From: Calditrichaceae bacterium
Lineage (GTDB): Bacteria; Calditrichota; Calditrichia; RBG-13-44-9; J075
DNA length: 64,000 bases
Assembly (NCBI GenBank): GCA_013360445.1
Contig: JABWBP010000005.1
Span: 20,487 to 84,486 of the forward strand
Direction: 5' to 3'
In this document: positions 16,425 through 54,820 of the stretch, one piece after another
How positions within the stretch are numbered: the stretch's first letter is position 1
Layout of the letters: every line of letters starts with the position of its first letter
Translations under genes and position numbers: made by a program
Notes under the pieces: generated by a model
Database searches by the model: none
Seen by the model: only the letters and a program-made list of their open reading frames with translations
Told to the model about the DNA's origin: nothing

Positions 16425-16492
16425 GGAGTGCAAAACTTCAGTTTTGCACTCCTAAAACGCAGCCAGTGTGCAAAACTGAAGTTTTGCACTCC
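16425..16492. repeat. Two REP-like perfect hairpins, GGAGTGCAAAACTTCAGTTTTGCACTCC and GTGCAAAACTGAAGTTTTGCACTCC.
   Basis: 10-12 bp perfect stems with 2-4 nt loops. The same motif recurs in about 10 other spacers. Confidence 0.7.
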
Positions 16493-16511
16493 TATAAGAA
16501 ACGGGGTGTTT

Positions 16512-18839
16512 ATGACTGAATTCCTGTTGCTGATCATTCTCATTCTCCTGGCCGTCTTCATCCGCAGGACCTTCATCCTGCGCGATGAGCTGCGCCTGCT
16601 CCGGCAGGAATTTTCCGATCTACGGCGGCAGTTTTCCCGCGACGAGGCGCCCTCGCCGCTCTCCCCGGAACCGTCTGCCGGTGAGATGGCCGCAGCGGCG
16701 CCGCCCCCCCAACCTTTCCTGCCGCCGCAGCCCGCAGAGCAGCCAGAACCCCCCGCATCGCCAGTTTTTCCCTCTCCCTCGCCGGCGTTCCTGAAAAAGT
16801 CCGCCAGCCGGGAGGAGTGGGAAGCGCTCATCGGCGGGCAGTGGCTCAACCGCATCGGGGCGCTGGCGCTGATCATCGGGGCGATCTTTTTCCTGAAATA
16901 CGCCTTCGACAATGACTGGATCAACGAAACCGTGCGGGTGCTGTTAGGCGGGCTGGCGGGTCTGGCCGCGCTCTTCGCGGCGCTGCGCTCCCACCGGAAA
17001 GGGTTCCACATCTTTTCCCAGGGACTTTTCGGGGCGGGAATCGGCCTGCTCTACCTGTCCAGCTATGCTTCCTACAATTTTTATCAACTCGTTCCCCAGC
17101 CGGGCGCTTTCGGGTTGATGATCATCATTACCGCGTTGAGCATCTTCCTCGCCCTGCGCTTCAATGCCCTCTCCATCGCCATATTAGGCTGGGCCGGCGG
17201 CTTCCTAACCCCCCTGGCGCTCAGCGCCGGGCAGGCCAACCAGGTGGGATTGTTCAGCTATATCGCGTTTTTAGACATCGCCCTGCTGGCGATTCTCTAC
17301 CGGAAACCCAACTGGGCGATTTTAAAACCGCTCACCCTGGGCGCCACCTACCTGATGTACCTGCTCTGGTTCGACCAGTACTACTCTCCGGAGCGCTTAG
17401 CCCTGACCATTTTCTTCCTCACCCTGTTCTGGGCGCTCTTCTACGCCGCCGCCCTGCCCAATTTGCTGCGGGCGGAACTCCCTTTTGCTCCCCTGGACCA
17501 GGCCATCGCCGCGCTGAACGCGGCGCTTTACTACCTCTTTCTGCATATCATTCTCCACCCGGAACACCCCACCACAACCGCGCTGGCGGCCCTGGCGCTG
17601 GGAACGGTTTACTTCCTTCCTTATCTGAACGTCAATTCCCGGCAGCCGGAAAAAGAAAAAAGCTTAGCCTCCTTCGCGGTCATCGCCGTTGCGCTGTTAG
17701 CCATTGCCACGGCGATCCAGTTTTCCGGGTACTGGCGGGTATTTTTCTGGTCCCTGGAGGGGCTGGCGCTGGTGGGCGCGGGGGTGCGTTTCAACCTGAA
17801 GCGGGTCTGGCAAATCGCCCTGTTGCTGCTGCCGGTAGCAGTAGCGGGCTTGTTGGGGGAGCTGATTTTTGAAGCCTTCCCTTTCGGAAAACCGGAATAT
17901 CCCTTTCTCTTCAGCAAGCGCACCGCCGCCTTCGCGATGGCCGCGCTGGCTTGCGGGTTGAGCGCCGCGCTCTTAAACCGAACTGGTGAAAACCGCCCGG
18001 CCATCATTCAGCAGATATTGCATTACGCCTGGAGCGTGTTAGGATTTATCTGGATCAACGTTGAGATCAACGAATATTTCCGTAAATTGCTCGAAGCCTC
18101 GCCGGATCATACCGAAACCCTGGAGTTCCGGCTCCTGCTGCTGCGTTACAGCGCCTGGATGGCCTACTCCCTGCTGCTGGCCTTCTTCGGCGCTTCCCGG
18201 GGGAATCCGGCGCTGCGCTGGGTGGGATTGGGAATTGCCGGAATCGCGGTTTTCTTTTCCGTCTTTGATCTGAGCCTCTACCGCCCCATCGAGCATTTTA
18301 CGGTTTTATGGAACGGGCGGGCTGCGACGCTGCTTTTCCTGGCGCTGGGATTATTCGTGCACGGGCAATGGATCTATCGTTGGGAATTGCCGCTGCGCTG
18401 GAGCCGGAAAGCGGTGACCGCGCTGCGCCTGGCGGCATTGCTGCTGATCCTGGCGCTGGTCACCGCGGAAACCAACGACGCATTCGACAAAAAGATCGTT
18501 TCCTTTATCTTAGAAAATCAAACCACGGACGCTCATCCGCAGGTAAAAACCCTGCACGACGTGCAGCAACTGGCCATCTCCCTGGTCTGGCTGATGTATT
18601 CGATTATTTTGATGGGGGTGGGAATCTGGCGGCGCATGGCCGGGGCGCGCTTTGCCGCCATCGGCCTGTTCGGCCTTACCATTCTGAAGATTTTTGTGTA
18701 CGACCTGTCATTTCTCGGCACCCTGTACCGCTTTATTTCCTTCATCGGCCTGGGGCTGGTGCTGTTGGGCGTATCGTACCTCTACCAGCGATACAAAGCG
18801 GTTCTCTTCGGCAACGAGGCCGGGAGAACCGCCCGATAG
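16512..18839 (+). CDS. DUF2339-like polytopic membrane protein (N-terminal TM helix, coiled-coil and Pro-rich linker, then about 20 TM helices).
   Basis: Architecture: MTEFLLLIILILLAVF, a charged heptad region, a PPPQPFLPPQP linker, then many hydrophobic helices. The track start at 16428 lies inside the REP hairpin; ATG 16512 is the likely start. Confidence 0.65.
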   Translation: MTEFLLLIILILLAVFIRRTFILRDELRLLRQEFSDLRRQFSRDEAPSPLSPEPSAGEMAAAAPPPQPFLPPQPAEQPEPPASPVFPSPSPAFLKKSASREEWEALIGGQWLNRIGALALIIGAIFFLKYAFDNDWINETVRVLLGGLAGLAALFAALRSHRKGFHIFSQGLFGAGIGLLYLSSYASYNFYQLVPQPGAFGLMIIITALSIFLALRFNALSIAILGWAGGFLTPLALSAGQANQVGLFSYIAFLDIALLAILYRKPNWAILKPLTLGATYLMYLLWFDQYYSPERLALTIFFLTLFWALFYAAALPNLLRAELPFAPLDQAIAALNAALYYLFLHIILHPEHPTTTALAALALGTVYFLPYLNVNSRQPEKEKSLASFAVIAVALLAIATAIQFSGYWRVFFWSLEGLALVGAGVRFNLKRVWQIALLLLPVAVAGLLGELIFEAFPFGKPEYPFLFSKRTAAFAMAALACGLSAALLNRTGENRPAIIQQILHYAWSVLGFIWINVEINEYFRKLLEASPDHTETLEFRLLLLRYSAWMAYSLLLAFFGASRGNPALRWVGLGIAGIAVFFSVFDLSLYRPIEHFTVLWNGRAATLLFLALGLFVHGQWIYRWELPLRWSRKAVTALRLAALLLILALVTAETNDAFDKKIVSFILENQTTDAHPQVKTLHDVQQLAISLVWLMYSIILMGVGIWRRMAGARFAAIGLFGLTILKIFVYDLSFLGTLYRFISFIGLGLVLLGVSYLYQRYKAVLFGNEAGRTAR

Positions 18840-18841
18840 TT

Positions 18842-18859
18842 GGACGCTTCCCTGCGTCC
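18842..18859 (+). terminator. Short hairpin GGACGC-ttccct-GCGTCC immediately after the DUF2339 stop.
   Basis: 6-bp stem seen directly. There is no U-tract, so its role as an intrinsic terminator is uncertain. Confidence 0.25.
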
Positions 18860-18886
18860 CGGCGTTGTGGCGTTGTGGCGAATAAC

Positions 18887-18934
18887 CAATTTAATTCGCA
18901 ATTGGCAATTACCAATTGGCAATTGCCAATTTAA
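18887..18934. repeat. Palindromic CAATTG-heptamer array.
   Basis: ccaatttaattcgcaattggcaattaccaattggcaattgccaatttaaaag, in the convergent spacer before ftsZ. Confidence 0.65.
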
Positions 18935-18994
18935 AAGCCTTTCCCCGTCACACGGGCCGGCATCTCCAACCCGGCAATCTTCAATCGAAAATCC

Positions 18995-20164
18995 CTAATC
19001 CATCTGCTTGCGCAAAAAAGTGGGGATGTCCAGGTCGTCGATTTCCGAATCGAAAGTGATCCCGTCCGATTTCTGGATGAGGGGGCGGTTTTCCGCCGCT
19101 TCCTCGGTTTTTTTCCGTTTTTCCCGCAAGAAGGTCGGCAAATCCAGCACCCGGGGATTGACCTCCATGGGCTTGCTAACTTCCGGTTTGACCACCGCCC
19201 GTTCATCGGTATTGAAGCCGGTAGCGATCACGGTAATGAAAATTTCGTCGTTCAGATTTTCATCGATCACCGCCCCGAAGATCACGTTGGCGTCTTCCCC
19301 GGCTTCCTCGTAGATGATGGTGGTCGATTCGCTCACTTCGTAGAGGGACATCTGGCTGCCGCCGGTAATATTGACCAGCACGCCCCGGGCCCCGCGAATG
19401 GAAACTCCTTCCAACAGCGGGCTGGCGATGGCTTGCTGCGCCGCCTGCACCGCCTTGCCGTCGCCGCGGGAGTAGCCGGTTCCCATCAGCGCGTCACCCA
19501 TCTCCGCCATAATGGTGCGCACGTCCGCAAAATCCAGGTTGATCAGCCCCGGCACGGTAATCAGGTCGGAAATGCCCTTGGTGGCATGCAGCAGCACCTC
19601 ATCGGCCACTTTGAAGGCGTCTAACAGGGGGGTGGTTTTATCCACCACCGCGAACAACCGCTGGTTGGGGATCACGATGAGGGTATCCACGGCCTTGCGC
19701 ATTTCCTGAATGCCCTGTTCCGCCCGCTGCGACCGTTTCAGGCCCTCGAACGTGAAGGGCTTGGTCACGATCCCGACCGTCAGCGCCCCTAACTCTTTGG
19801 CCGCTTGCGCCACCACCGGCGCGGCCCCGGTGCCGGTTCCGCCGCCCATTCCCGCGGTCACGAACACCATGTCCGCCCCGGCCAGCGCCTTCTTCACCTC
19901 TTCATAATCTTCCTCGATGGCCTTGCGCCCGATCTCCGGATTGGCCCCGGCGCCCAGCCCGTGGGTGAGCTGCTTGCCGATTTGCACCTTGAACTGGGCG
20001 TGATTCTGCTCCAGCGCCTGGGAATCGGTGTTGATGGAAATGAAATCCACCCCGCTCAGGCCGGTTGTTACCATGGTGTTGATGGCATTGCCGCCGGCGC
20101 CGCCGACCCCGATTACCTTCAACTTCGCATTCAATTCCGCTCGTTCGTCAAACTCTATCGCCAT
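18995..20164 (-). CDS. ftsZ: Cell division protein FtsZ.
   Basis: [11 protein letters not shown], the tubulin signature [13 protein letters not shown], and the T7 loop region NLDFADV. Confidence 0.95.
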
Positions 20165-20218
20165 AACGCCTCCAGTTGGTTATAGTTGATCGCCTTCCTG
20201 GCGCCGCTTTTTTCAACA

Positions 20219-20316
20219 GGAGTGCAAAACTTTAGTTTTGCATTCCAGATGCGGTTTTTTTTGCTTCCGCAAAAAGTCGAAGATTACCCCAGTGCAAAAC
20301 TGAAGTTTTGCACTCC
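20219..20316. repeat. Two REP-like hairpins in the ftsA-ftsZ spacer.
   Basis: ggagtgcaaaactttagttttgcattcc and agtgcaaaactgaagttttgcactcc. Confidence 0.65.
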
Positions 20317-20320
20317 GAAT

Positions 20321-21553
20321 CTAAAAGAACCGCTTAAAAAACTGCCGGAAACTGCCTAACACGTCGTCCCACAAAACCCCGTGCTGGGGATTGGATAATA
20401 CGCCGTTCTGATGGTATAGCGGCCCGTAGAGGCACAATCCCACCGCGGTGCTGTAAATGGGGCTGCGCACGGAGTCGGTCAGCCCGCCTAAGGTTTTGGG
20501 AACTCCCAACCGCACCGGCATTCCCCAGATGTCTTCAGCCATTTTTGCAGTGCCCTCTAACAGCGCCGCGCCGCCGGTAATCACCGCGCCGGCGGCCATC
20601 AAATCTAACAGCTCTGATTTTTTCATTTTTTGGTGCACTAACGACAGGATTTCCTCCATGCGCGGGGCAATAATATCCACTAACACTGCCCGGGAGATGG
20701 TGCGCGGCAGCCGCCCTCCTACACCGGGCACGGTGATCGTATCCGCCTCGCTGATGCTGTCGCGCATGGCCGCACCGTATTTGATCTTGATCGCCTCGGC
20801 CTGCTCCGGGGGGGTGCGCAATCCCACCGCAATATCATTGGTGACGTGCTGCCCGCCTAAGGCCACCACGGAGGTATGCTGGATGTGCCCGTCGAAGAAC
20901 ATGGCGATGTCGCAAGTGCCGCCGCCGATGTCCACCAGCGCCACCCCTAACTGCCGCTCGTCGTCATCCAACACCGCGATGCTGGAGGCCAGCGGCTCCA
21001 GCACGATCTCTTCCACGTCGTAACCGGCGCGCTGCACGCTGCGCACGATGTTCTGCGCGGAAGTGACCGCGGCGGTAACGATGTGCACCTCTACCTCTAA
21101 GCGCACCCCGGACATGCCCACCGGGTCGGCGATGCCGTCCTGGTCGTCCACCAGGAATTCCTGGGGAATGACGTGGATGATTTCCCGGTCGATGGGAAGT
21201 GCCAGGGCTTTGGCGGCGTTGACAGCCCGCTCCACGTCTTCCTCGCTGATCTCGTGATCGTCGCGGGAGACGCCCACCATGCCCTTGCTGTTGATGCTGC
21301 GGATGTGGTCCCCGGCAATGCCCACAAAAACCGATTCCACCTGGATGCCGGCCATCGCTTCCGCCTCTTCCACGGCCGCCCGCACGGAATTGACGGTTTT
21401 ATCGATGTTTACCACCACTCCCTTGCGCAGCCCGTGAGAGGGGGAGCTGCCGATCCCCACGACGTTCAGCTTGCCGTCGGGGTCCTCTTTCACCACCACG
21501 GCGCAAATCTTGGTCGTGCCAATATCTAACCCGGTAATGAGTCTGCCTTCCAT
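20321..21553 (-). CDS. ftsA: Cell division protein FtsA.
   Basis: Actin-like ATPase motifs GLDIGTTKICAVV and VDIGGGTCDIAMF. Confidence 0.95.
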   Translation of the reverse strand: MEGRLITGLDIGTTKICAVVVKEDPDGKLNVVGIGSSPSHGLRKGVVVNIDKTVNSVRAAVEEAEAMAGIQVESVFVGIAGDHIRSINSKGMVGVSRDDHEISEEDVERAVNAAKALALPIDREIIHVIPQEFLVDDQDGIADPVGMSGVRLEVEVHIVTAAVTSAQNIVRSVQRAGYDVEEIVLEPLASSIAVLDDDERQLGVALVDIGGGTCDIAMFFDGHIQHTSVVALGGQHVTNDIAVGLRTPPEQAEAIKIKYGAAMRDSISEADTITVPGVGGRLPRTISRAVLVDIIAPRMEEILSLVHQKMKKSELLDLMAAGAVITGGAALLEGTAKMAEDIWGMPVRLGVPKTLGGLTDSVRSPIYSTAVGLCLYGPLYHQNGVLSNPQHGVLWDDVLGSFRQFFKRFF

Positions 21554-21625
21554 AACTGATCCTTTTGTGTGTCAGGGTCTCTGTTGCTTTGTTATTCTGC
21601 TTTGTTATTCCAAATCTGATTCTAT

Positions 21626-21733
21626 CGATGCTCGATGCTCGATACTCGATGCTCGATGCTCGATATAGATCAAATCCGCTGCCAGGTATCCGGCATCCGG
21701 CATCCAGCATCCAGTATCCAGCATCCGGCATCC
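21626..21733. repeat. ATGCTCG heptamer array (x5) followed by a CATCCRG heptamer array (x7). The two are partially complementary (GATGC/GCATC) and form a hairpin.
   Basis: cgatgctcgatgctcgatactcgatgctcgatgctcgata ... ggtatccggcatccggcatccagcatccagtatccagcatccggcatcc. Confidence 0.6.
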
Positions 21734-21739
21734 CAACTT

Positions 21740-22519
21740 TCACCCCTTTTTCCGCAAGACGATGCGCTCCTCAAAGGTGAGATCGATTTGCCGGATGGCC
21801 GGCAACTGGCCGACGACCGGCTCTTTTTCCAGCAACTGGCTGAGCAGGTAGAGACGCTGGTAATGCTTTTCCCGGCCAATCTTTACCCGCGCCGCGCCTT
21901 TTACTAAAATCAATTCCGGCTCGTGATTTTTCCCCAGGTTGATCTCGGAAATAAACGAAAAGAGATTGCGATCGACTTCGCGAATTTTTTGCACCACCCC
22001 GATGATCTCTTGCAGCGCTAAACTGTCTTTGGCCAACTCCCGGGCGGTTATGCCGGTCACCAGCGGGTATTTACTCATGGGCATGGAGGGCAATTTTTTG
22101 AGAATCACACCCTCTTCATCGACCATGTAGAGCGCCTTATCGGCCAGGTAGAAGACCGGCTCGCGCTCCTGCACGTTGATCAAAATCGTCGCCGGCATCA
22201 CCCGGGAGACGCTGACCCCACGGAAATAAGCGTTCTTCAGCAGCGTTTTGTTCAACTCCTCGACGTTAACCTTATACATGATTTGCGTGGTATCGATCTT
22301 AGCCGCCTTGCGGATCTCCTGCGTATCGATGAAACGGTTGCCGGTAATACGCACCGTTTCCGCCCGGAAAAGCGAGGTGCGGTACATCAGGTAATTGCTC
22401 CCGCGATAGACGCCATACCCCGCCAGCGCCAGCAATCCCAAAATCGCCACCAGTTTGGGGCTGGGATATAGCATTTTTGGCATCTGTTTATTTTTACGCT
22501 TCATAGCTTTTTCAAGCAC
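21740..22519 (-). CDS. ftsQ: Cell division protein FtsQ/DivIB (single TM helix plus POTRA domain).
   Basis: N-terminal TM helix LVAILGLLALAGYGVY, the POTRA pattern VRITGNRFIDTQEI, and cluster position. Confidence 0.85.
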   Translation of the reverse strand: MLEKAMKRKNKQMPKMLYPSPKLVAILGLLALAGYGVYRGSNYLMYRTSLFRAETVRITGNRFIDTQEIRKAAKIDTTQIMYKVNVEELNKTLLKNAYFRGVSVSRVMPATILINVQEREPVFYLADKALYMVDEEGVILKKLPSMPMSKYPLVTGITARELAKDSLALQEIIGVVQKIREVDRNLFSFISEINLGKNHEPELILVKGAARVKIGREKHYQRLYLLSQLLEKEPVVGQLPAIRQIDLTFEERIVLRKKG

Positions 22520-22612
22520 ACGGGTGTTTTAGTGCTCTGGTGTTCGAGTGTTATGCTGTGTCATTCTCAAAATTTACGAGAACACTCGGACACTAAAACA
22601 CTTGAACACATT
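22520..22612. repeat. GTGTT-word array followed by its AACAC-word complement.
   Basis: cacgggtgttttagtgctctggtgttcgagtgttatgctgtg ... gagaacactcggacactaaaacacttgaacac. Confidence 0.6.
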
Positions 22613-23559
22613 TACGGTTTTTCCACCCTTCGCTGATCTTCCTCCGAAAAACCCACTAACTTTACTTCCAATTCCAGCCACACCCCGGAGTGTTCGTACA
22701 CTTTGCGCTGCACCCGCCAGATCACTTCGTAAATGTCCCCCGCAGCGGCGTGGTTGAAGTTGACCACGAAGTTGGCGTGCTTGGGAGAGACCATCGCGCC
22801 TCCCACGGTAAATCCTTTGCACCCTGCCGCTTCGATCAGCCGCCCGGCGTAATCCCCGGGGGGGCGTTTGAACACGCTCCCGCAGGATGGATATTCCAAA
22901 GGCTGCTTCTCGGCGCGGCGTTTCAGGTAATCTTCCCGGGAGCGGCTCAATTGCTCCCGGTCTCCCGGCTCCAGGAACAGCCAGCAACCTAAGAGTATTT
23001 TGTTTTCCAGGCCGTCGGCGCGGCGGTAACCGAACTGCGCTTCCTCCCGGGGAAGCTGAACCCGGCGGCCCTTTTTATCCAGCGCGTCGATGCGCAGCAC
23101 CCGGTCGCCGATCTCGCCCACGAACGCCCCGGCGTTCATGCGAAGCGCTCCTCCCACGGTGCCGGGAATGCCGGACATGTAATCCAATCCTCCTAAGCTG
23201 TGCTTTTCGCAATATTCCACCAAATCCGCCACCGTTGCGCCGGCGCCCACGTAGAGCAACTCCCCCTCGTGAAACAACTGGCTGCAACAATGCTCTAACA
23301 GCACCACCACCCCCCGGAATCCCTCATCATGCACCAGCACGTTGGCGCCCTTTCCCATCACAAAATAAGGGACTCCTTCCCGGGTGCAGCAGCGAATGAT
23401 CTGCTCCAGCTCTTCCACCGTCGCGGGGGTTGCCAGAACATCTGCCTTACCGCCCACCTGGTAACTGGTCAGCGGCGCCAGGGGCGCATCCAGACGGCAG
23501 CTATCCGGGTATTCCCGTTTCAGCCGCTGGATGGTCTTTTTGATCTTCTCCGAGTTCAA
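22612..23559 (-). CDS. murB: UDP-N-acetylenolpyruvoylglucosamine reductase.
   Basis: FAD-binding domain GGKADVLATPATVEEL, a C-terminal MurB domain, and a TTG start. Confidence 0.9.
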   Translation of the reverse strand: MNSEKIKKTIQRLKREYPDSCRLDAPLAPLTSYQVGGKADVLATPATVEELEQIIRCCTREGVPYFVMGKGANVLVHDEGFRGVVVLLEHCCSQLFHEGELLYVGAGATVADLVEYCEKHSLGGLDYMSGIPGTVGGALRMNAGAFVGEIGDRVLRIDALDKKGRRVQLPREEAQFGYRRADGLENKILLGCWLFLEPGDREQLSRSREDYLKRRAEKQPLEYPSCGSVFKRPPGDYAGRLIEAAGCKGFTVGGAMVSPKHANFVVNFNHAAAGDIYEVIWRVQRKVYEHSGVWLELEVKLVGFSEEDQRRVEKP

Positions 23560-23561
23560 GG

Positions 23562-23588
23562 TTCAATCTTCAATTTTCAATCTTCACT
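23562..23588. repeat. TTCAATC heptamer x3 in the 24-nt murC-murB gap.
   Basis: ttcaatcttcaattttcaatcttcac. Confidence 0.5.
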
Positions 23589-24963
23589 TCTTTCCCAGCT
23601 TTTCCGCCAATTCATTGGCGCACTTCCAGACGTCGCCGGCGCCGATGGTGATGACCATATCGCCGGGCTGCAGAAGCGGGAACACTTCCCCGGCCAATTT
23701 GCGCTTGTCTTCCACGTAGAGCACTTGCTTGTGCCCCATGGTGCGGGCGGTATCGGCGATGAGTCTGCCGCTGACGCCCTCGAGGGGTTTCTCCCGCGCC
23801 GGGTAAACGTCGGTGACCACCAGGATATCCGCGTCGAAAAAGGAGCGGGCAAACTCTTTGTAAAAATCCCGGGTGCGGGAATACAGGTGCGGCTGGAATA
23901 CCGCGATGATGCGTTTTTCCGGCCAGCTGCTGCGCGCCCCTTGCAGGGTGGTCAGGATTTCCGCGGGATGATGGCCGTAATCATCCACCACCATGATGTC
24001 GTTTACCTGCGCCTTGACCTCGAAGCGGCGGCTGATCCCGGAAAATCCTTCCAGGGCTTTTTGAATGGTCGCAAAGGGAACTTCTAACTCCAATCCCACG
24101 GCAATGGAAGCCAGGGCGTTCTGAATATTGTGCCTGCCGGTCAAATTCAGCTTGACGCGGCCCAGCAATTCGCCCTCGTGGAAGGCGTCGAACTCCGTTC
24201 CGTAAGGCAAAAAATGCAGGTTGCGGGCGGTAAAATCCGCCTGGCTGCTGAAGCCGTAGCTGATCACGGTGCGCTTCAAGGCGTGGAGGATTTCCTGCAC
24301 CCCGGGATTATCCAGGCAGGCGATCACCTTCCCGTAAAAGGGAACCTTGTTGGCAAAGGCAATGAAAGCGTTTTTCAGATCCTCCAGGTCCTTGTAGCAG
24401 TCTAAGTGATCGGTGTCCACGTTGGTAATCACCGCAATGGTCGGGATCATGGAAAGGAAGCTGCGGTCGAATTCATCCGCTTCCGCCACCAGGAACTCTC
24501 CCCTCCCTAACTTGGCGTTGGTGTCCAGGGAGCGAACCTTGCCGCCGATGATCAGGGTGGGGTCCAGCCCGCCCTCGGTCAGCGCCGCCCCGATCAGCGA
24601 CGTGGTGGTGGTTTTCCCGTGGGTTCCGGCCACGGCGATGCCGTATTTCAGGCGAATCAGCTCGCCCAACATCTCCGCGCGTTTGATCACCGGAATCTTG
24701 CGCCGCAGCGCTTCCTGCACTTCTAAGTTATCCGCGTTGACCGCAGAGGAGTAGATCAGCACCTCCGCGTCCTGCACGTTCTCCGCCCGGTGGCCTTCGC
24801 TAATCCGCGCGCCCATGGCGGCGAGCTTGTGGGTAAGTTCGGAAAGCTGGGTGTCCGAACCGCTCACCTGGTAGCCGAGGTTCAGCAGCAGCTCCGCAAT
24901 GCCGCTCATGCCGATCCCGCCGATCCCGACGAAGTGAATTTTGTGAATTTTGCCTAAGCGCAT
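23584..24963 (-). CDS. murC: UDP-N-acetylmuramate--L-alanine ligase.
   Basis: IHFVGIGGIGMSGIA, the Mur ligase P-loop GTHGKTTTT. Confidence 0.95.
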   Translation of the reverse strand: MRLGKIHKIHFVGIGGIGMSGIAELLLNLGYQVSGSDTQLSELTHKLAAMGARISEGHRAENVQDAEVLIYSSAVNADNLEVQEALRRKIPVIKRAEMLGELIRLKYGIAVAGTHGKTTTTSLIGAALTEGGLDPTLIIGGKVRSLDTNAKLGRGEFLVAEADEFDRSFLSMIPTIAVITNVDTDHLDCYKDLEDLKNAFIAFANKVPFYGKVIACLDNPGVQEILHALKRTVISYGFSSQADFTARNLHFLPYGTEFDAFHEGELLGRVKLNLTGRHNIQNALASIAVGLELEVPFATIQKALEGFSGISRRFEVKAQVNDIMVVDDYGHHPAEILTTLQGARSSWPEKRIIAVFQPHLYSRTRDFYKEFARSFFDADILVVTDVYPAREKPLEGVSGRLIADTARTMGHKQVLYVEDKRKLAGEVFPLLQPGDMVITIGAGDVWKCANELAEKLGKK

Positions 24964-25003
24964 TCTGTTTTTCCGGTGATTATGTTTTTATCCACCCGTT
25001 TTT

Positions 25004-25125
25004 CAGTAGGCAGTAGGCAGTTGGCAGTAGGCAAAAGAAACTGCGCTTCTGCCGCTTTTCACTGCAAAACTGAAGTTTTGCACTCCGGTTATTGCTTACT
25101 GCCTACTGCCTACTTGCCTACTGCT
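25004..25125. repeat. Nested element: a GTAGGCA-heptamer array, then a REP-like hairpin, then the TGCCTAC complement array.
   Basis: cagtaggcagtaggcagttggcagtaggcaa ... ctgcaaaactgaagttttgcactcc ... ttgcttactgcctactgcctacttgcctactgc. The right arm overlaps the murG stop. Confidence 0.65.
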
Positions 25126-26221
25126 TTTCCAGCAGTTTCAATATCTCCTCGCCAATCTGCTCCGCGGCGCGGGGGCGGGCCAATGTTTTCCAGGCCGCGC
25201 TCTGCCGCTGCCGCAGAGATTCATCGCTCAACAGGGTTTCCAATGCCTGCTGCAATTCCTTTTCCCAGCCCGTTTTTTCCGTGACCATCAGGGCCGCCCC
25301 GGCTTCCGCGACCATGCGGCTGTTGTGCTCCTGGTGATTTCCCGCCGCGAAGGGATAGGGCACTAACACGGCCGGCCTGGCGACTGCGGCCAGCTCCGCC
25401 AGGGTGATCGCCCCGGCGCGGCATACGACCACGTCTGCCGCGGCGTAAGCCGCCTCCATCTCCTGAATGTAGGGCAGAATGCGCACCCTTTCATCGGCGC
25501 TTTGAAATCCCTTCACCACTGTCTGGAACTGGCTTTCCCCGGCCTGCCAGATCACCTGCATGGGGTATTTCTTCAGCAATTCCGGGAGAATGCCGCTCAT
25601 GGCGTTGTTGATGGAGCGCGCTCCCTGGCTGCCGCCGAATATGAGCAAGGTGATTTTATCCGGCTCCAGCCCCATTTTTTCCCGCCCGGCCTGCCGGGTA
25701 ACGCCGCCCAGGGTCTCCCGAACCGGGTTGCCGGTGACCACCAATTTATCCGCATACTGCGAAAAATACCGCCGCGCCGCTTCGAAAGAGAGGCAGATGC
25801 GCCGCGCGTATTTGGCCAGCAGCCGGGTGGTGACGCCGGGGTACACGTCCTGCTCCTGGATGAGCACCGGCACGCCCATTTTCGCCGCAGCGTAGAGCGC
25901 CGGGCCGCTCACGTAGCCGCCGGTTCCCACCGCCGCGTGGGGCGCAAACCGCTTCACGATTTTCCGGCTTTGATACAGACCGATGAGCAGCTTCGCCGGG
26001 AATAGCAGGTTTTTTAGGTTGAAGCTGCGCGCGAATCCCGAAATCAGGATGGTTTCCAGGGGAACGCCGTAACGGGGCACAATCCGGGTTTCGATCCCGT
26101 TTTTGCCCCCCACGTAAAGGAACCGGAAATCGCCCTTGCGTTTCAGCGCTTCGATAGTCGCCAGCGCCGGGTACACGTGCCCGCCGGTTCCGCCCCCGGC
26201 AATCAAGATTCGCTTTTCCAT
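25118..26221 (-). CDS. murG: Lipid II synthase MurG (undecaprenyldiphospho-muramoylpentapeptide beta-N-acetylglucosaminyltransferase).
   Basis: ILIAGGGTGGHVYPALA, the GT-B fold, and cluster position. Confidence 0.95.
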   Translation of the reverse strand: MEKRILIAGGGTGGHVYPALATIEALKRKGDFRFLYVGGKNGIETRIVPRYGVPLETILISGFARSFNLKNLLFPAKLLIGLYQSRKIVKRFAPHAAVGTGGYVSGPALYAAAKMGVPVLIQEQDVYPGVTTRLLAKYARRICLSFEAARRYFSQYADKLVVTGNPVRETLGGVTRQAGREKMGLEPDKITLLIFGGSQGARSINNAMSGILPELLKKYPMQVIWQAGESQFQTVVKGFQSADERVRILPYIQEMEAAYAAADVVVCRAGAITLAELAAVARPAVLVPYPFAAGNHQEHNSRMVAEAGAALMVTEKTGWEKELQQALETLLSDESLRQRQSAAWKTLARPRAAEQIGEEILKLLEKQ

Positions 26222-26240
26222 TCACATTCACTATTCGCTA

Positions 26241-26525
26241 CCCTTCGACAAGCTCAGGGCAAGTTTCATCATTCTCAGTTCACTATTCACAATTCCCCGT
26301 TCACCATTCCCCTTCACCGCACCTTTTTCACCCCCGCCCGGCTGCGGGTTCGGCGACGAACCGGCAGATGAACCCCTTCATGCGGCAGCGGGGCGGCAAC
26401 CGCCGGGATAAACGCCATGCTTTTTAGCTTGATCTTGATTTTCATTTTCATCTTCATACCACACCATCCTTTCCAGGAATCCTTTTCCCTTCTCACTTCT
26501 CACCCTTCGACAAGCTCAGGGCAAG
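26241..26525. repeat. 309-bp spacer bounded by perfect 23-bp direct repeats CCCTTCGACAAGCTCAGGGCAAG (26241-26263 and 26503-26525). The interior holds TTCACTATTC / TCACTTCTCAC word runs.
   Basis: Exact repeat found by eye about 262 bp apart. It lies between murG and ftsW inside the dcw operon. Confidence 0.6.
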
Positions 26526-26529
26526 CTTC

Positions 26530-27711: not shown

Positions 27712-27727
27712 CTTCTTCACTGTACGG

Positions 27728-27772
27728 GAGGCGGAGCCTCCACGGTGGCGATCCGACGCAGAGCGTCGGATC
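27728..27772. repeat. Two adjacent perfect hairpins, GGAGGC-gga-GCCTCC and GATCCGACGC-agag-GCGTCGGATC, in the murD-ftsW spacer.
   Basis: 6-bp and 10-bp perfect stems seen directly. Confidence 0.55.
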
Positions 27773-27800
27773 GAGCAAAACGTAGTGGATTCTTCTACCC

Positions 27801-39463: not shown

Positions 39464-39574
39464 GTTTCAGGTTTTGAGTTTCGAGTTTGGCGCATGGCGC
39501 ATAGAGCATAGGGCATAGCGGGGCAGTTCCGTCTTATCCTTGCGCTTTGCACTCTGCGCTCTGCGCCATGCGCC
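39464..39574. repeat. GAGTTTC heptamer x3, then a GCGCAT-word array with its ATGCGC-word complement (hairpin).
   Basis: ggttttgagtttcgagtttgg cgcatggcgcatagagcatagggcatagcg ... cgctttgcactctgcgctctgcgccatgcgcc. Confidence 0.6.
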
Positions 39575-41065: not shown

Positions 41066-41123
41066 CTTCCCCAAATTCACTTTTCATCCCCGCATTCACG
41101 GGGACAAATTTTTCACTTTTCAC
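41066..41123. repeat. TTTTCAC heptamer run (direct, x5) around a small hairpin TCCCCG-cattca-CGGGGA.
   Basis: ttcacttttcatccccgcattcacggggacaaatttttcacttttcacttttcactttc. Confidence 0.55.
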
Positions 41124-42147
41124 TTTTCACTTTCTCCAACTCCTCTTCTAACTTCTTTACCCGTTTCAGCAATTCCGGGAGGCTGTTGAGCGCCGCTTCA
41201 ATGCGTTTGGTTTTCATGATCGGGCGGGCCGGGTACCCGAAGATGATTTCGTCGTCTCCCACGCTTTTGGGTACCCCGGATTTCGCCCCGATCTGCACCC
41301 GGTCGCCGATGGTGATGTGCCCCACCGTGCCCACCTGCCCGGCAATCATCACGTTCCGCCCGATTTTGGTGCTCCCGGAAATGCCGGTTTGCGCCGCAAT
41401 CACGGTGTTTTCCCCCACGGTGACGTTGTGGGCTAAGTGTACCAGGTTGTCTAATTTTGCGCCGGCCTTCACTACCGTCTCGCCTAAGGTGGCGCGGTCG
41501 ATGGTGGCGTTTGCGCCGATTTCCACGTCGTCTTCGATAACCACCCGCCCGACCTGGGGAATTTTGTGAAATTTCCCCTGGTAAGGGGCAAATCCAAACC
41601 CGTCGCTGCCGATTACCGCGCCGTTGTGAATGATCACCCGGCTGCCGATGCGGCAATTTTCCCGGACGCCCACCGAGGGATAGAGGATGCAGTCATCGCC
41701 CACGCTGCTGTCGTCTAATATCACGCAATTGGGGAAAATCTGGCAGCGCTCGCCGATCCGCACGTTCGCCCCGATGTAAACATTTGCCCCGATAGCGCTG
41801 TCCTTGCCGATCCGGGCGCCGGGGTGAACCACCGCGCTGGGGTGAATCCCCGCTTCTAACATCTTTTTGGGAGCGTTGAACAGGAGAAACGTTTTCAGAA
41901 AACCGAAATAAGCGTCAATGGCCTGAATATAAGGAATCGCGGGCGTAACCCCCGCTTTGGCGTCGATGATGACCGCAGAAGCCCCGGTCTTCGCCAAATA
42001 TTCCCGGTAGCGGGGATTGGCCAGAAAGGTGATCTCCCCGGCTTTCGCTTTGTCGATTTCGGCCACGTTAGTGATTTTTACGTTCGGATCGCCCTGCAAT
42101 TCCCCGCCGATATGTTCGGCAATTTCCGCCAGGGTAAAAACCGGCAT
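41113..42147 (-). CDS. lpxD: UDP-3-O-acylglucosamine N-acyltransferase.
   Basis: N-terminal LpxD domain, hexapeptide repeats, and C-terminal coiled coil. Confidence 0.9.
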   Translation of the reverse strand: MPVFTLAEIAEHIGGELQGDPNVKITNVAEIDKAKAGEITFLANPRYREYLAKTGASAVIIDAKAGVTPAIPYIQAIDAYFGFLKTFLLFNAPKKMLEAGIHPSAVVHPGARIGKDSAIGANVYIGANVRIGERCQIFPNCVILDDSSVGDDCILYPSVGVRENCRIGSRVIIHNGAVIGSDGFGFAPYQGKFHKIPQVGRVVIEDDVEIGANATIDRATLGETVVKAGAKLDNLVHLAHNVTVGENTVIAAQTGISGSTKIGRNVMIAGQVGTVGHITIGDRVQIGAKSGVPKSVGDDEIIFGYPARPIMKTKRIEAALNSLPELLKRVKKLEEELEKVKSEK

Positions 42148-42957: not shown

Positions 42958-43064
42958 GGGACGTAAAGTGTAAAGCGTAAATCGTAATGCGTAATTTCAT
43001 TTTCTATTCGCTTTAGATATTACCCTTTACGCATTACGTGTTACACATTACGCATTACGTTTCA
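42958..43064. repeat. CGTAAA-word array with its TTACG-word complement (hairpin).
   Basis: gacgtaaagtgtaaagcgtaaatcgtaatgcgtaatttc ... ccctttacgcattacgtgttacacattacgcattacgtttcac. Confidence 0.6.
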
Positions 43065-43067
43065 CTC

Positions 43068-45383: not shown

Positions 45384-45446
45384 CGAATCAAACCCTTTTT
45401 TTACTTCAAACCATACAAATTAAACGATTCACGTATTTTTTGCAAA

Positions 45447-49622: not shown

Positions 49623-49624
49623 TC

Positions 49625-49705
49625 CATTGCTCGTACTGGATGCTCGATGCTCGATATTCGATGTTTGATGCTTGAAACGGGCCTGTTGCATCGGGCATCG
49701 GTGAA
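49625..49705. repeat. ATGCTCG-word array with a GCATCGG complement (same family as 21626-21733).
   Basis: ctcgtactggatgctcgatgctcgatattcgatgtttgatgcttg ... ttgcatcgggcatcggtg. Confidence 0.55.
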
Positions 49706-49742
49706 GGGCGCCGCTAGGGGCGTTTGCAGTGTATTATAACGC

Positions 49743-49770
49743 GAACCTGCTAAAAGGTTCGGGGGTTTTT
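49743..49770 (+). terminator. Hairpin GAACC-tgctaaaa-GGTTC followed by GGGGGTTTTTT (plus-strand orientation).
   Basis: 5-bp stem plus T-run. It is weak, and no plus-strand gene lies upstream. Confidence 0.2.
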
Positions 49771-49808
49771 TAGAATTGGCAATTACCAATTGCCAATTGG
49801 CAATTAAA
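49771..49808. repeat. CAATTG heptamer palindromic array.
   Basis: tagaattggcaattaccaattgccaattggcaattaaaaac. Confidence 0.65.
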
Positions 49809-49814
49809 AACACT

Positions 49815-51122: not shown

Positions 51123-51168
51123 GACTCTCTTGGGTTCGCTTTCCGAAGTCGCAAGGGCCGGTTGCGCT

Positions 51169-52539
51169 TTACAGATTATACTTTTTAACCTTATTTCTCA
51201 AAGTACGCAGGGTAAAACCCATCTTTCTGGCCGCCTGGGTTTTGTTGTTCCCGGTTTCGCTAAGCGCCTGGCGGATGATTTCCCGTTCGCAGGCTTCCAA
51301 TTTTTCCTTGTAGCCCAGGTTGCTGTCCTCTAACACCCGGTCGAACAGGGGCGAGCCGGTGGCCCGGGGCCCCTGCAAATACGCCGGGAGGTCCTGGGCG
51401 GCGATATGAGTCCCCTCGCACATCACCACCGCGTTTTCGATGGCGTTTTCCAGCTCCCGCACGTTGCCGGGCCAGTCGTAGCCCATCAGGAGCTTGCGGG
51501 CTTCTTCCGATATTCCCTGGATTTGGCGCTGATCCTTCAGTACGTATTTTTTGAGAAAATGGTCGGTGAGCGGGCCGATGTCCTCCAAACGCTCCCGCAA
51601 AGGGGGAATCAGGATCGGGATAACGTTCAGGCGGTAGTAGAGGTCTTCCCGGAACAGCTTTTCCGCCATGCGTTTTTCCAGGTCGGCGTTGGTGGCGGCG
51701 ATCAGGCGCACGTCCACCTCGATATTGTCCACCCCGCCTACCCGGTTGAAGCGTTTTTCCTGCAACACCCGCAGCAGCTTCGCCTGCAAGGAGAGCGGAA
51801 GCTCGCCGATCTCGTCCAAGAACAGGGTGCCTTTGTCGGCGATCTCGAACTTGCCCTTCTTCATTTTATAAGCGCCGGTGAAGGCGCCCTTTTCATGGCC
51901 GAACAGCTCGCTCTCTAACAGGTTTTCCGGGATAGAGGCGCAATTGATCTCTACCATGGCGTGATTCTGGCGCTTGCTCTGGAAATGCACCGCCCGGGCG
52001 ATCAGCTCTTTGCCGGTGCCGCTCTCTCCCCGCAGCAGCACCGTGGCGTCCGTGGCCGCGACTTTGGCGATCTTTTGGAACACTTCCTGCATCTTCCCGC
52101 TTACCCCGATGATATTCTCGAAGCGATACGTGCGGGTCAATTTGGATTTCAGATCCAGGTTTTCGCTGATGAGGCGTTTTTCTTCCAGCGCCCGGCGGAT
52201 AATGATCAGCAGCTCGTCTAAGTTGATGGGCTTGGTCAAATAGTCATAGATGCCCATTTTCATGGCGTTCACGGCGTTTTTGACGGTGCCGAAAGCGGTC
52301 ATCATAATGATTTTGATGTCCGGCTGGTTTTCCAGCAGCACGCCGGATAACTCCAGCCCGTTCTGGTCCGGCAGCAGGTAATCCATCAATACCAGGTCGA
52401 AAGCGCCTTTGTTGAACTCGCCCAGGGCCATGCGGGCATTTTTTGCCTTGCAGATTTCGAGGTTCTCTTCTTCCAGGATTTCGGCCAGGCCGTTCAAGGT
52501 ATTGATGTCATCTTCGACGATAAGGATTTTTTCTTTCAT
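51169..52539 (-). CDS. Sigma-54-dependent response regulator (NtrC family).
   Basis: Receiver domain, AAA+ domain with GESGTGKE and GAFTGA, and a C-terminal Fis-type HTH. Confidence 0.9.
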   Translation of the reverse strand: MKEKILIVEDDINTLNGLAEILEEENLEICKAKNARMALGEFNKGAFDLVLMDYLLPDQNGLELSGVLLENQPDIKIIMMTAFGTVKNAVNAMKMGIYDYLTKPINLDELLIIIRRALEEKRLISENLDLKSKLTRTYRFENIIGVSGKMQEVFQKIAKVAATDATVLLRGESGTGKELIARAVHFQSKRQNHAMVEINCASIPENLLESELFGHEKGAFTGAYKMKKGKFEIADKGTLFLDEIGELPLSLQAKLLRVLQEKRFNRVGGVDNIEVDVRLIAATNADLEKRMAEKLFREDLYYRLNVIPILIPPLRERLEDIGPLTDHFLKKYVLKDQRQIQGISEEARKLLMGYDWPGNVRELENAIENAVVMCEGTHIAAQDLPAYLQGPRATGSPLFDRVLEDSNLGYKEKLEACEREIIRQALSETGNNKTQAARKMGFTLRTLRNKVKKYNL

Positions 52540-52629
52540 AACAATGGCAATTTTCGATTGAAGATCAACAGTTTACGATTTATGAGCGTCCCGGCGGACC
52601 AAAGCACTTCATCGCGCCGGGGGCTACGC

Positions 52630-52765
52630 GTGCAGAACTGAAATTTTGCACCACAGGAGCCGCTTTGAGGCGCTCCAGCCGTTTTAATTGACAATTGGCA
52701 ATTAGCAATTGGCAATTGCCAATTATACCCTGATTGAGCGTGCAAAACTGAAGTTTTGCACTCCT
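52630..52765. repeat. A REP-like hairpin variant, then a CAATTG array, then a REP-like hairpin.
   Basis: gtgcagaactgaaattttgcac ... ttaattgacaattggcaattagcaattggcaattgccaatta ... gtgcaaaactgaagttttgcactcc. Confidence 0.65.
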
Positions 52766-52775
52766 GCCCCTGCCC

Positions 52776-54620
52776 CTACACATTTCCCCCCGGTTCATCA
52801 ATCGGCAGTTCGATGAATACCGAGGTTCCCACTTTCGGGGTGCTTTCAATATACACAACTCCTTTATGCCCCTCAACAATTTGTTTGGCAATTGCCAGTC
52901 CCAGCCCGCTGCCGGCGCGTTTGGTGGTATGGTAGAATTCGAAAACGTCCTTCAAAATCTCTTTGGGGATGCCCGCCCCGGTATCCCGGAATTCGATTTT
53001 GATATAATACCCCTGTTCCTTATCGGATTTTTCTTTGCGGATAATAGCGGTTTTGATCCACAGAATCCCTCCCTCCTCCATCGCTTCGAAAGCGTTGATG
53101 ATGATATTATGAAAAACCTGTTTGAGCTGGTTGTAATCGAACATGCCGGTAACGGCCCCGTTCTTGAATTCCTTCGCCGGGGCAAATTCCTGTTTGAGCG
53201 CCACTCTTAAAGAAGCGGCCCGGGCCGCCTGGATCATGATAATGTCCTCCAGCACCTGGTGAATATCGGTGCGGATGAGATTCAATTCCGGGGGGCGGGC
53301 GATGGTTAGAAAGTTGGTCACCAGCTCGTTGATGCGGGAGATTTCCGAAGAGATTACCTCCAGGTACTTGATCTTCTTTTCCGGGGAGATTTCCTTGCGA
53401 TGGATGAGGCGCTTCAAAATCTGCATGTTGATGTTCATGGAATTGAGGGGATTGCGGATTTCATGGCTCACCAGGGCGGAAAAACGGCTCAGCGCCTCTA
53501 ACCGTTCCATCTTTTGCAATTTCCGCTGGTTGCTCAGCAGGGAGCGGGCCATGGAGTTGAACTCCTGCGCCAGCTCGCCTAACTCATCCTGGTTTTTCAT
53601 TTGAATTTTATGCTGCAAATTGCCGCTGCCGTATTCCCGAACTCCCTGCACTAATTGCAGCAGCGGTCTGGTAAACCGTCTCACCCCTAATATTCCTAAT
53701 ACCAGCGCCACCAGGACGGTAATAGTGGTGAATATCCACAAGCGCACCTGCATCTGGTGCGCCAGGGTAAACGCTTCGTCCAGGGATTGCTGCACCACAA
53801 TGCCCCATCCCAACTGGGGAATGGGAACGTACACCAGGATGTTCTCCTCGCGGTCGATCGTGTAGGCGGTAATTCCTTCTTTGCCGGATTTCAGCTCCCG
53901 GGAAAATTCATAAAGAGAGTAGTCTTCCTGCTCGAAGACCTTTTCTTTATTCCGGTGCGCGATAACCTGACTCTCCGCGCTGAGCAGGAAAGCGAAGCCG
54001 GTTTTTCCGATGGTAACGCTGTCCACCACCGCCCAGATGGTTTTCAAATCGATCTCCGCAGCCAGCACCCCCAGCACCTGGTTGTATTTTTTGATCGGCT
54101 CCGAAACGGTGAGCAGGGGGAAGCGCGAAGGGGTGAAGTACACCTCGGAGAAATAGGAGCTGTCTTTCATCGCCCGGGTGAAAAGAGGCTCCCCGCTCAA
54201 ATCCTGCATTTCTTCCCCGAACCGGGTGGTGGCGGTTACCCGCCCGCTGTCATTCAACACAAAAACGGTGCGGAAGATGGGTTCTTCATCTTTTATTTTA
54301 TTGATCAGGTTGCTCTGGGTAAAGCGGTCCATGTCGGTAATATCGCGGGTGAGCGCGGCGCTGTGCAAAATGGTCAGGGGTTCTTTGATGAAGAGGTAGA
54401 TCTCATTGGCGGCGCGGCGGGCGATTTCCAGGTTGCGCTCGTAAATGTAGGATTGCACGGTGTTGCGGGTCAGGGAAATCAGGATCAGGCTGACGATCAA
54501 CAGCGGCAGGGTTCCTAACCCCACGTAGGTAATCATCAAACGATTGGAGATTTTCCGGGAAAGGAAGTGTTGGAAATTGCCCCGGGCTGCCCGAAGGCGC
54601 TGTTGAAAAGCCAGTTTCAT
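52776..54620 (-). CDS. Sensor histidine kinase (TM helix, dCache-like periplasmic domain, HAMP, HisKA, HATPase).
   Basis: H-box ALVSHEIRNPL, and the N, G1 and G2 boxes (DTGAGI, GSGLGLAI). Confidence 0.9.
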   Translation of the reverse strand: MKLAFQQRLRAARGNFQHFLSRKISNRLMITYVGLGTLPLLIVSLILISLTRNTVQSYIYERNLEIARRAANEIYLFIKEPLTILHSAALTRDITDMDRFTQSNLINKIKDEEPIFRTVFVLNDSGRVTATTRFGEEMQDLSGEPLFTRAMKDSSYFSEVYFTPSRFPLLTVSEPIKKYNQVLGVLAAEIDLKTIWAVVDSVTIGKTGFAFLLSAESQVIAHRNKEKVFEQEDYSLYEFSRELKSGKEGITAYTIDREENILVYVPIPQLGWGIVVQQSLDEAFTLAHQMQVRLWIFTTITVLVALVLGILGVRRFTRPLLQLVQGVREYGSGNLQHKIQMKNQDELGELAQEFNSMARSLLSNQRKLQKMERLEALSRFSALVSHEIRNPLNSMNINMQILKRLIHRKEISPEKKIKYLEVISSEISRINELVTNFLTIARPPELNLIRTDIHQVLEDIIMIQAARAASLRVALKQEFAPAKEFKNGAVTGMFDYNQLKQVFHNIIINAFEAMEEGGILWIKTAIIRKEKSDKEQGYYIKIEFRDTGAGIPKEILKDVFEFYHTTKRAGSGLGLAIAKQIVEGHKGVVYIESTPKVGTSVFIELPIDEPGGNV

Positions 54621-54645
54621 TTAATCACGTTGTGAGTTTGACCTC

Positions 54646-54820
54646 GGAGTGCAAAGCTTCAGCTTTGCACTGTATCGGAGTGTAAAACTCCGGCTTTGCA
54701 GTTTAATTCCTCATCGAGCAGTTCCGGCGTTTGCCCTGTTGCGAAGCGGCTCCTTCGGAGGATTGCCGTCAGATTGAGGATTTTTCAGGGTTGTGCAAAA
54801 CTGAAGTTTTGCACTCCGCT
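54646..54820. repeat. Three REP-like hairpins, two of them degenerate variants.
   Basis: ggagtgcaaagcttcagctttgcactg; ggagtgtaaaactccggctttgcag; gtgcaaaactgaagttttgcactcc. Confidence 0.6.

Follow-up and report, generated by a model that had tools for sequence, protein, structure and literature searches.

The 64,000-nucleotide stretch of DNA analysed here (the window; contig JABWBP010000005.1 of a Calditrichaceae bacterium) carries a family of short hairpins that are very likely repetitive extragenic palindromic (REP) elements. As such they would be the single-strand-DNA substrates on which a REP-associated tyrosine transposase (RAYT) acts, whose gene is present in one or a few copies at another place in the genome. 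The repeats lie outside genes, follow a rule of tag and orientation, are spread over related genomes in association with RAYT genes, vary in the stem in a compensatory manner and are gained and lost between relatives. The features by which REPs are recognised are found here: a short and stable palindrome, an extragenic location, a conserved tag at the 5′ foot and, in sister and related genomes, copies that flank a RAYT gene. The hairpins are selfish or domesticated DNA of a well-known kind and not a new type of system; what sets them apart is the guide tag, GGAG(T), and the host lineage.

The link with a transposase comes from close relatives of the window organism. Two loci (L030 and L078) of the metagenome-assembled genome (MAG) CAZFVV, deposited as uncultured Calditrichaceae, are orthologous to window positions 17995–26211 and 52769–60986 at 89–94% DNA identity, and because of this orthology CAZFVV is, by its sequence, a sister species of the window organism. 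At locus L035 of this sister MAG, seven REP copies are found within 1 kb, and a 181-aa gene (3215–3760, minus strand) encoding a RAYT lies between them.

Ten hairpins in five intergenic spacers

The motif GTGCAAAACT-NN-AGTTTTGCAC is matched nine times in the window with two or fewer mismatches, where 0 matches are expected. At the same tolerance, GTGCAAAACTNNAGTTTTGCAC is found at 16428, 16468, 20222, 20292, 25062, 52630, 52740, 54649 and 54793, and none of 100 dinucleotide-preserving shuffles of the window gave a single match. A looser half-site search added a tenth, decayed copy at 54680 (GGAGTGTAAAACTCCGGCTTTGCAG, four mismatches) and detected no lone half-site in the window. Pairs of DNA uptake sequences were discarded as a candidate, half-sites never being single in the window.

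The unit is 25–28 nt long with a stem of 10–12 bp, and it is asymmetric, a 5′ GGAGT tag standing at the foot of the hairpin. Read from the tag, it consists of GGAGT-GCAAAACT-loop-AGTTTTGC-AC, with TC as the loop (GA on the opposite strand). The GGAG tag precedes the hairpin on one strand in 8 of the 10 window copies, and the window has no further GGAG-tagged hairpin whose stem reaches 7 bp. Five copies have a perfect 10-bp stem, and 16425–16452 makes a perfect 12-bp stem when the tags are counted; the copies at 52630 and 54680 are decaying. As DNA the unit folds at −12.0 kcal/mol and as RNA at −17.9 kcal/mol (z about −6); 60% of the stem is A/T. An intrinsic terminator was ruled out by this A/T-rich stem together with the missing U-tract, no T-run being present behind any window copy in the direction of transcription. 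A search of Rfam 15 across the whole window returned 0 matches.

All ten copies sit within five short intergenic spacers of a window that is about 92% covered by long open reading frames (ORFs), and none lies inside a reading frame. According to the Pfam matches of the neighbouring genes, these spacers separate a hypothetical gene from a DUF2339 membrane protein gene, ftsA from ftsZ, murG from murC, a Cache/HAMP histidine kinase gene from a sigma-54-dependent response regulator gene, and a family-5 solute-binding protein gene from a histidine kinase gene. Four of the five spacers hold two or three copies. Tag-first copies in the window begin 4–31 nt behind the upstream stop codon and their partners lie 22–90 nt before the next start; paired copies have their tags facing outward, as GGAGT-hairpin...hairpin-ACTCC. 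An ORF of 803 aa, listed with its start at 16428, is spurious and due to a GTG within the hairpin; its DUF2339 match starts downstream.

The copies, with coordinates, strand and setting, are as follows.
16425..16452, plus strand: REP copy GGAGTGCAAAACTTCAGTTTTGCACTCC, tagged on both sides, 12-bp perfect stem; begins 17 nt behind the stop of the preceding gene (15409–16407).
16468..16492, minus strand: REP copy GTGCAAAACTGAAGTTTTGCAC followed by TCC, tag-first on the minus strand; its end is 22 nt upstream of the DUF2339 gene's ATG (16515), and with the 16425 copy it makes up a doublet with the tags outward.
20219..20246, plus strand: REP copy GGAGTGCAAAACTTTAGTTTTGCATTCC, one mismatch; 54 nt upstream of the ftsZ start; its orthologue in L030 has the canonical TC loop.
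20292..20316, minus strand: REP copy with a perfect stem; 4 nt behind the stop codon of ftsA.
25062..25086, minus strand: REP copy CTGCAAAACTGAAGTTTTGCAC followed by TCC, with a broken outer pair; 31 nt behind the murG stop.
52630..52651, minus strand: decaying REP copy GTGCAGAACTGAAATTTTGCAC, two uncompensated mismatches, untagged; 90 nt upstream of the response-regulator start.
52740..52764, minus strand: REP copy with a perfect stem; 11 nt behind the stop of the histidine-kinase gene.
54646..54670, plus strand: REP variant GGAGTGCAAAGCTTCAGCTTTGCAC, in which an A>G change is compensated by T>C; 25 nt upstream of the start of the histidine-kinase gene; the variant is kept in L078 and occurs identically in L044, L045 and L057.
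54677..54701, plus strand: decayed REP copy with four mismatches (the tenth copy, above); kept in L078.
54793..54817, minus strand: REP copy with a perfect stem; 10 nt downstream of the solute-binding-protein stop; kept in L078.

The initial annotation of this DNA had described ten copies of a perfect 10–12-bp hairpin, always intergenic, often in pairs and devoid of a U-tract. All ten were recovered, at coordinates right to within 1–3 nt, and its account of spacers and missing T-run agrees with what is reported above; the pairs, for their part, proved to be inverted and outward-tagged. Its observation of a copy nested in a GTAGGCA array also holds, the 25062 copy being enclosed by inverted arrays of GTAGGCA-type heptamers at 25004–25036 and 25090–25124. 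The 141-nt unit made up of these arrays and the REP folds at −64.6 kcal/mol as RNA. Other short-word arrays adjoin REP copies in the kinase/regulator spacer: one, CTGCCCCTGCCCCT, abuts the copy that ends at 52764, on the far side of that position, and a GCAATTG heptamer array of about five units (52690–52727), kept in L078, adjoins the site that is filled in the window and empty in the sister MAG, as described below.

The hairpin recurs in related genomes

An exact-stem scan covered the GTDB species-representative genomes, and the counts drawn from the matches listed are lower bounds. At least 79 loci carry the stem; they belong to at least 10 MAG species, whose GC content is 44–57%, and the loop is typical of each MAG: the window clade has GA/TC, D_3_bin.27 has TT/AA, and others have TA or AT. 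Among the matches listed, the sister MAG has 39 copies on 18 loci and D_3_bin.27 has 44, next to 10 in the 64 kb of the window; REP families typically exceed 100 copies per genome, and the numbers given here are to be read as at least these values. Throughout the window and the listed loci, the tag faces outward, toward the nearer flanking gene, and pairs are always arranged with the tags at the outer ends. The characterisation of the family in the initial annotation as REP-like and conserved in sequence is borne out by these extragenic palindromes, often in inverted pairs, recurring on many contigs of related genomes.

Do the hairpins also occupy coding sequence? The expectation that they would not stood for the window, and largely for the wider set, in which about 99 of 118 copies (window plus listed loci, two or fewer mismatches) are outside long open frames; it failed for rare in-frame copies in relatives. 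One such copy, at L038 2306–2327 (PGADAEAAG-VQNFSFA-PASDG), is contained in a 1918-aa ORF; CARDB/NPCBM_assoc domains precede it, an FlgD_ig domain follows, and it has the appearance of a real insertion into a coding linker. It also looks like the only true in-frame copy among the candidates in the relatives. The others belong to tandem units of 126–144 nt, each with one REP and hexamer runs (L051 7275–7977, L005 1–400, L019 4150–4746), which lie upstream of a CoA-transferase III gene; the frame is open there and would read ...GVQNFSFA..., and these apparent coding copies are probably untranslated, upstream of the real start. A CRISPR-like array was rejected for these loci, the regular 126–144-nt spacing reflecting tandem duplication and not a repeat-spacer arrangement. 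In L051, runs of CTGCCC/CTGCGC abut the REP copies.

Some of the loci bearing the stem carry unexpected taxonomic labels. The Deltaproteobacteria label of the WYBG MAG ('Deltaproteobacteria bacterium PRO9') looks wrong from its DNA, because its loci L021 and L032 are 88–92% identical to the orthologous loci L034 and L068 of the Calditrichaceae MAG CAZFVV. Contig L012, binned as Candidatus Brocadia, bears the REP as well.

A RAYT gene among the hairpins

In the sister MAG, four REP copies lie upstream of the RAYT gene of L035 and three downstream; one begins 2 nt past its stop codon and another ends 9 nt ahead of its ATG. The encoded protein has the HUH motif NHYH at about residues 64–67, the sequence YYVRLNYLLWNPVRHGYVEDLKNYPFSSFH, the motif Y-LLWNPVRHGYV and, aligned with E. 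coli TnpA-REP (PDB 4ER8), a tyrosine in RLNYLLWNPVRHGYV...PFSSFH. Its score against the NCBIfam equivalog NF047646, 'REP-associated tyrosine transposase', is 99.1 bits (cutoff 80), and the match to TnpA-REP (E=4e-9) extends over the HUH motif, the tyrosine and the C-terminal motif. No tnpB was found adjacent to the gene. The arrangement is repeated in a second species, at L055 of another MAG whose REP has an AT loop, where a RAYT homologue (E=2e-12) is bracketed by GGAGTGCAAAACTATAGTTTTGCACTCC and GGAGTGCAAAATCTATAGTTTTGCGCTCC. The L055 homologue (4363–4905) contains two in-frame stop codons and is either a pseudogene or the product of an assembly error.

Since the hairpins accompany an enzyme of the Y1/HUH superfamily, they might instead be the ends or miniature derivatives, of the palindrome-associated (PATE) or miniature inverted-repeat (MITE) type of transposable element, of an active multi-copy IS200/IS605-family element, and not REPs served by a single domesticated RAYT. 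The L035 protein does show a weak Pfam Y1_Tnp match, IS200/IS605 ends are likewise tagged subterminal hairpins (PMC6006769), and D_3_bin.27 carries a MITE-like, 112-nt version of the repeat. However, the protein scores above the cutoff of the RAYT equivalog, its alignment with TnpA-REP includes the NPV+HG+V...PFSSFH tail, and a profile built from the IS200, IS608 and ISDra2 transposases missed it. About 0.6 Mb of hairpin-centred DNA (MAG fragments) yielded one intact and one broken RAYT homologue only. In addition, the gene has several REPs on either side instead of one left and one right end, and tnpB is not next to it. Taken with these observations, an IS200/IS605 origin appears very unlikely.

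The IS200-type profile found a different gene, at L006 5592–6279 of D_3_bin.27, a second Y1 transposase gene with a Pfam Y1_Tnp score of 87 bits, flanked by inverted palindromes CCCAGGGTCGCGAAGCGCACCCTGGG and AAACCCTGAAAGGGTTT. It was rejected as the partner of the window hairpin because these palindromes are its own and unrelated; the gene and its palindromes are a separate REP/RAYT-like pair in the same genome.

Paired stems vary around a constant foot

A metagenome scan with the L035 protein recovered 80 loci encoding proteins 51–64% identical to it. A perfect GGAG-tagged hairpin (stem of at least 7 bp, starting at GGAG) was present within 350 nt of 67 of these 80 RAYT homologues, and hairpins accompanied 232 of 654 GGAG sites near a RAYT gene compared with 21 of 859 at more than 600 nt. 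With seven flanking copies around the sister-species gene, the same arrangement in L055 and this association in the metagenomes, the cognate RAYT that the initial annotation had suggested as a possibility has a good candidate.

The 97 distinct hairpins around the RAYT homologues share the foot GGAGT-N-CAAA, and the upper stem and loop vary from locus to locus with pairing always kept, as in GGAGTCCAAAGCTTCAGCTTTGG, GGAGTACAAACCTAGGTTTGTACTCC and GGAGTGCGAAAGCTGTGCTTTCGC. Hairpins of L123 and L156 have the form GTGCCAAAC...GTTTGGCAC. Only one of the 80 loci nearly matches the window hairpin, namely L085, whose RAYT is 61% identical and is flanked by GGAGTGCAAAACTT[CT]AGTTTTGC. Many of the metagenomic genes have the same outward-tagged doublet on both sides. 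A fixed foot below a freely varying but paired stem is the pattern expected of an enzyme that reads a fold plus a fixed guide tag, and not the one expected of a regulator that binds duplex DNA.

This pattern bears on another explanation, in which the palindromes would be double-stranded operators of a dimeric transcription factor that controls a regulon. A perfect palindrome of 22 bp would suit such a protein, and some copies (16468, 54646) are located 20–60 nt upstream of starts. Against it, the change of stem sequence with pairing kept across the RAYT clade indicates selection for the fold and not for the duplex sequence, half of the copies are directly behind stop codons, and the neighbouring genes (dcw cell-division genes, a two-component system, a membrane protein, a solute-binding protein) are functionally unrelated. 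A 10-bp half-site that is perfect at dozens of sites is unlike operator evolution, and copies are gained and lost between close relatives. We regard an operator function as extremely improbable. A sigma-54 or Bacteroidetes-type promoter, suggested by the half-site TTTTGCA, was rejected by inspection only: the spacing is wrong for sigma-54, the palindrome is far more conserved than a promoter box would be, and half of the copies come after stops.

Gain, loss and decay of copies

Comparison with the sister MAG indicates a family in movement. The 20219 copy and the three copies at 54646–54817 are kept at orthologous sites. In L030, different hairpins replace the 20292 copy, and the murG-murC spacer is devoid of the 25062 copy and of the inverted heptamer arrays enclosing it. 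The 52740 copy is part of a 40-nt segment (52729–52768; CCCTGATTGAGC-REP-TCCTGC). The L078 spacer, which can otherwise be aligned, lacks this segment, giving a filled and an empty site; in the window, CCCTG stands on both sides of it. Among 126 window-clade stems, 92 are perfect and 46 one-arm changes represent decay; of the double changes, 9 are compensated and 1 is uncompensated.

In D_3_bin.27 a 112-nt element, GTAnCTATTCAGGCGTGAGAAGCTTC-GGAGTGCAAAACTTTAGTTTTGCAC-TGTTTCAATGAAAGCC-GCAACGCTAAAGCGTTGCACTCC-AATACCAAAGGCTGAATAGTTAC, has the hairpin as its left half; it is an outward-tagged doublet in which the second hairpin differs from the first by compensated changes. The element has 13-bp terminal inverted repeats and sharp borders, and at least 35 copies of it are found, in all gene contexts. 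A fixed spacer, by which REPINs (inverted REP doublets) are recognised, characterises this 112-nt unit and is not seen in the window doublets 16425/16468, 20219/20292 and 54646/54793.

The position of the copies between genes invites the idea that they are maintained mainly as RNA elements (3′-end protectors, terminators without a U-tract or processing sites recognised by a protein) that tune operon expression, the transposase link being incidental. E. coli REPs stabilise upstream mRNA. In the window and the loci, tag-first copies follow stops by 4–38 nt and mirror copies shortly precede starts, the RNA hairpin is very stable (−17.9 kcal/mol, as above), and several copies are kept at orthologous positions. 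Nevertheless, the outward-tag rule is symmetric and holds around RAYT genes whatever the gene direction, so that transcription is not needed to account for it, and neither an Rfam match nor a U-tract is present. Copies are gained or lost between genomes about 92% identical, the hairpin is part of a mobile-looking element in every gene context in D_3_bin.27, and the statistical tie to RAYT genes is strong. This reading is unlikely and does not fit as the origin of the family, but such a function is compatible with REP identity as a secondary, exapted role.

A model for the REP/RAYT partnership

Several observations weigh against the identification as REP elements. The tag, GGAG(T), is neither the GT[AG]G nor the CGTC of the described REP super-families. 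Profile and homologue searches detected no RAYT gene in the 64-kb window, so the cognate enzyme is seen in the sister species and not provably in the window genome, and the L035 protein scores 22.1 bits against Pfam Y1_Tnp, slightly below the 23-bit cutoff. Eight of the nine compensated changes are one A8>G variant that was probably copied after a single event. Also, the spacers of window-clade doublets differ in length (15 to about 120 nt) and in sequence, and these doublets do not look like units copied whole.

The REP/RAYT interpretation leads to the following model, which draws on the enzymology and single-strand mechanism of described RAYTs and relatives; any benefit to the host would likewise be putative. 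The functional unit would be the hairpin with its 5′ GGAG(T) foot tag, the latter in the role played by the guide tetranucleotide GTAG of E. coli REPs. On the pattern of TnpA-REP of E. coli and of IS608 TnpA (PMC3479197, PMC6006769), the RAYT would bind the folded hairpin, for example GGAGTGCAAAACTTCAGTTTTGCAC, on single-stranded DNA; it would then read the tag, and cut and rejoin the DNA nearby through its HUH/Tyr site. Such cutting and rejoining would spread, delete and reshuffle copies, singly or as outward-tagged doublets, in tolerant intergenic DNA. A resident copy that is transcribed within an operon would form a very stable RNA hairpin (−17.9 kcal/mol). Because this hairpin would stand 4–31 nt after a stop or 22–90 nt before a start, a secondary effect on protection or stability of mRNA 3′ ends, on translation or on the relative expression of neighbours (ftsA/ftsZ or murG/murC, for instance) is plausible.

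Comparison with described REP and RAYT systems

The closest parallel is the REP and bacterial interspersed mosaic element (BIME) system of E. coli with TnpA-REP. In both, an extragenic palindrome of 20–40 nt has a conserved tetranucleotide at its 5′ foot and occurs singly and as inverted pairs between co-transcribed genes, and the RAYT gene is flanked by copies. The L035 protein aligns with 4ER8 over the HUH motif, the catalytic tyrosine and the C-terminal NPV.HG.V..PFS.FH. In contrast, the tag is GGAG(T) here and GTAG in E. coli, the stem here is A/T-rich, perfect and unbulged with a loop of 2–4 nt, and the enzyme has NHYH and YLLWNP where TnpA-REP has H-M-H (from the alignment) and YIYINP. 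The host also differs, being an uncultured Calditrichota-type bacterium and not a gammaproteobacterium.

In Pseudomonas, inverted REP pairs (REPINs) flank the RAYT gene and are scattered extragenically (Bertels and Rainey; PMC3116915, PMC5581495). Outward-tagged doublets similarly surround most RAYT homologues here, and the two-hairpin unit of D_3_bin.27, with its near-identical copies, behaves in a REPIN-like manner. Unlike REPINs, the doublets of the window clade contain spacers that are unrelated and vary between 15 and about 120 nt, and because of this the single REP, not a fixed doublet, looks like the unit in that clade.

Tagged hairpins, an HUH/Y1 enzyme acting on single-stranded DNA and a guide tetranucleotide 5′ of the foot are also known from the IS200/IS605 family (IS608, ISDra2), and by analogy the same would apply here. 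The gene described in this study differs in having no left-end/right-end pair and no tnpB, and in being missed by an IS200-type profile while passing the RAYT model.

The GTAG- and CGTC-tagged super-families resemble the present one as stem-loop repeats with a short end tag that occur in several species and flank a RAYT gene (Di Nocera et al. 2013, PMC3733652). That survey reports the tags GTAG and CGTC only, with no GGAG, and does not list Calditrichota (PMC3733652). The GGAG tag is absent from two broad REP/RAYT surveys, which recognise GT[AG]G and CGTC (PMC3733652, PMC6006769), and a literature search with the hairpin sequence itself returned unrelated primers only. TnpA-Y1 subclass 2.6, from Bacteroidetes, comprises proteins of about 179 aa; 'atypical secondary structures' flank their genes (Quentin et al. 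2018, PMC6006769). Their length is close to the 181 aa found here, and the flanking hairpins likewise differ from the GT[AG]G type and occur again elsewhere in the genome; the published motifs NH[LIV]H / WQ / YIH[QN]NP differ from NHYH / YWDY / YLLWNP (PMC6006769). Compared by motifs and description only, this subclass may be related to the L035-type RAYT. Bacteroidetes are related to the host of the present family through the FCB (Fibrobacteres-Chlorobi-Bacteroidetes) group.

We put forward, tentatively and with more doubt than conviction, that these repeats constitute a third, GGAG-tagged REP super-family, with the foot GGAGT-N-CAAA and its own clade of RAYTs (NHYH...YLLWNP, about 180 aa), widespread in uncultured environmental bacteria, in which the stem would co-vary with the enzyme and the guide tag would stay fixed. 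Since the tag is also a Shine-Dalgarno-like GGAG (CUCC on the opposite strand) that stands closely behind stops and closely before starts, copies might in addition act on the translation of neighbouring genes.

The identification as REPs would extend the REP/RAYT partnership to a poorly known lineage, that of Calditrichota-type MAGs and their relatives. The 97 hairpins and 67 homologues, with a constant GGAGT foot and co-varying upper stems, would offer a natural series to study how RAYTs read their substrates. For genome annotation, a conspicuous intergenic repeat of these MAGs is explained and possible break sites in assemblies are marked, and operon junctions (ftsA/ftsZ, murG/murC, a two-component system) are flagged at which a stable RNA hairpin may modulate expression.

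Other features of the window

Further short-word arrays, at 39484–39560 and 41100–41135 (GCGCATGGCGCATAGAGCATAGGGCATAGCG; TTTTCACTTTTCACTTTTCAC), are unrelated to the REP family. Part of the dcw cell-wall and division cluster (murC, murG, ftsA, ftsZ) occupies 18995–26221 on the minus strand. GC skew is negative over 16–48 kb, consistent with genes co-oriented with replication.

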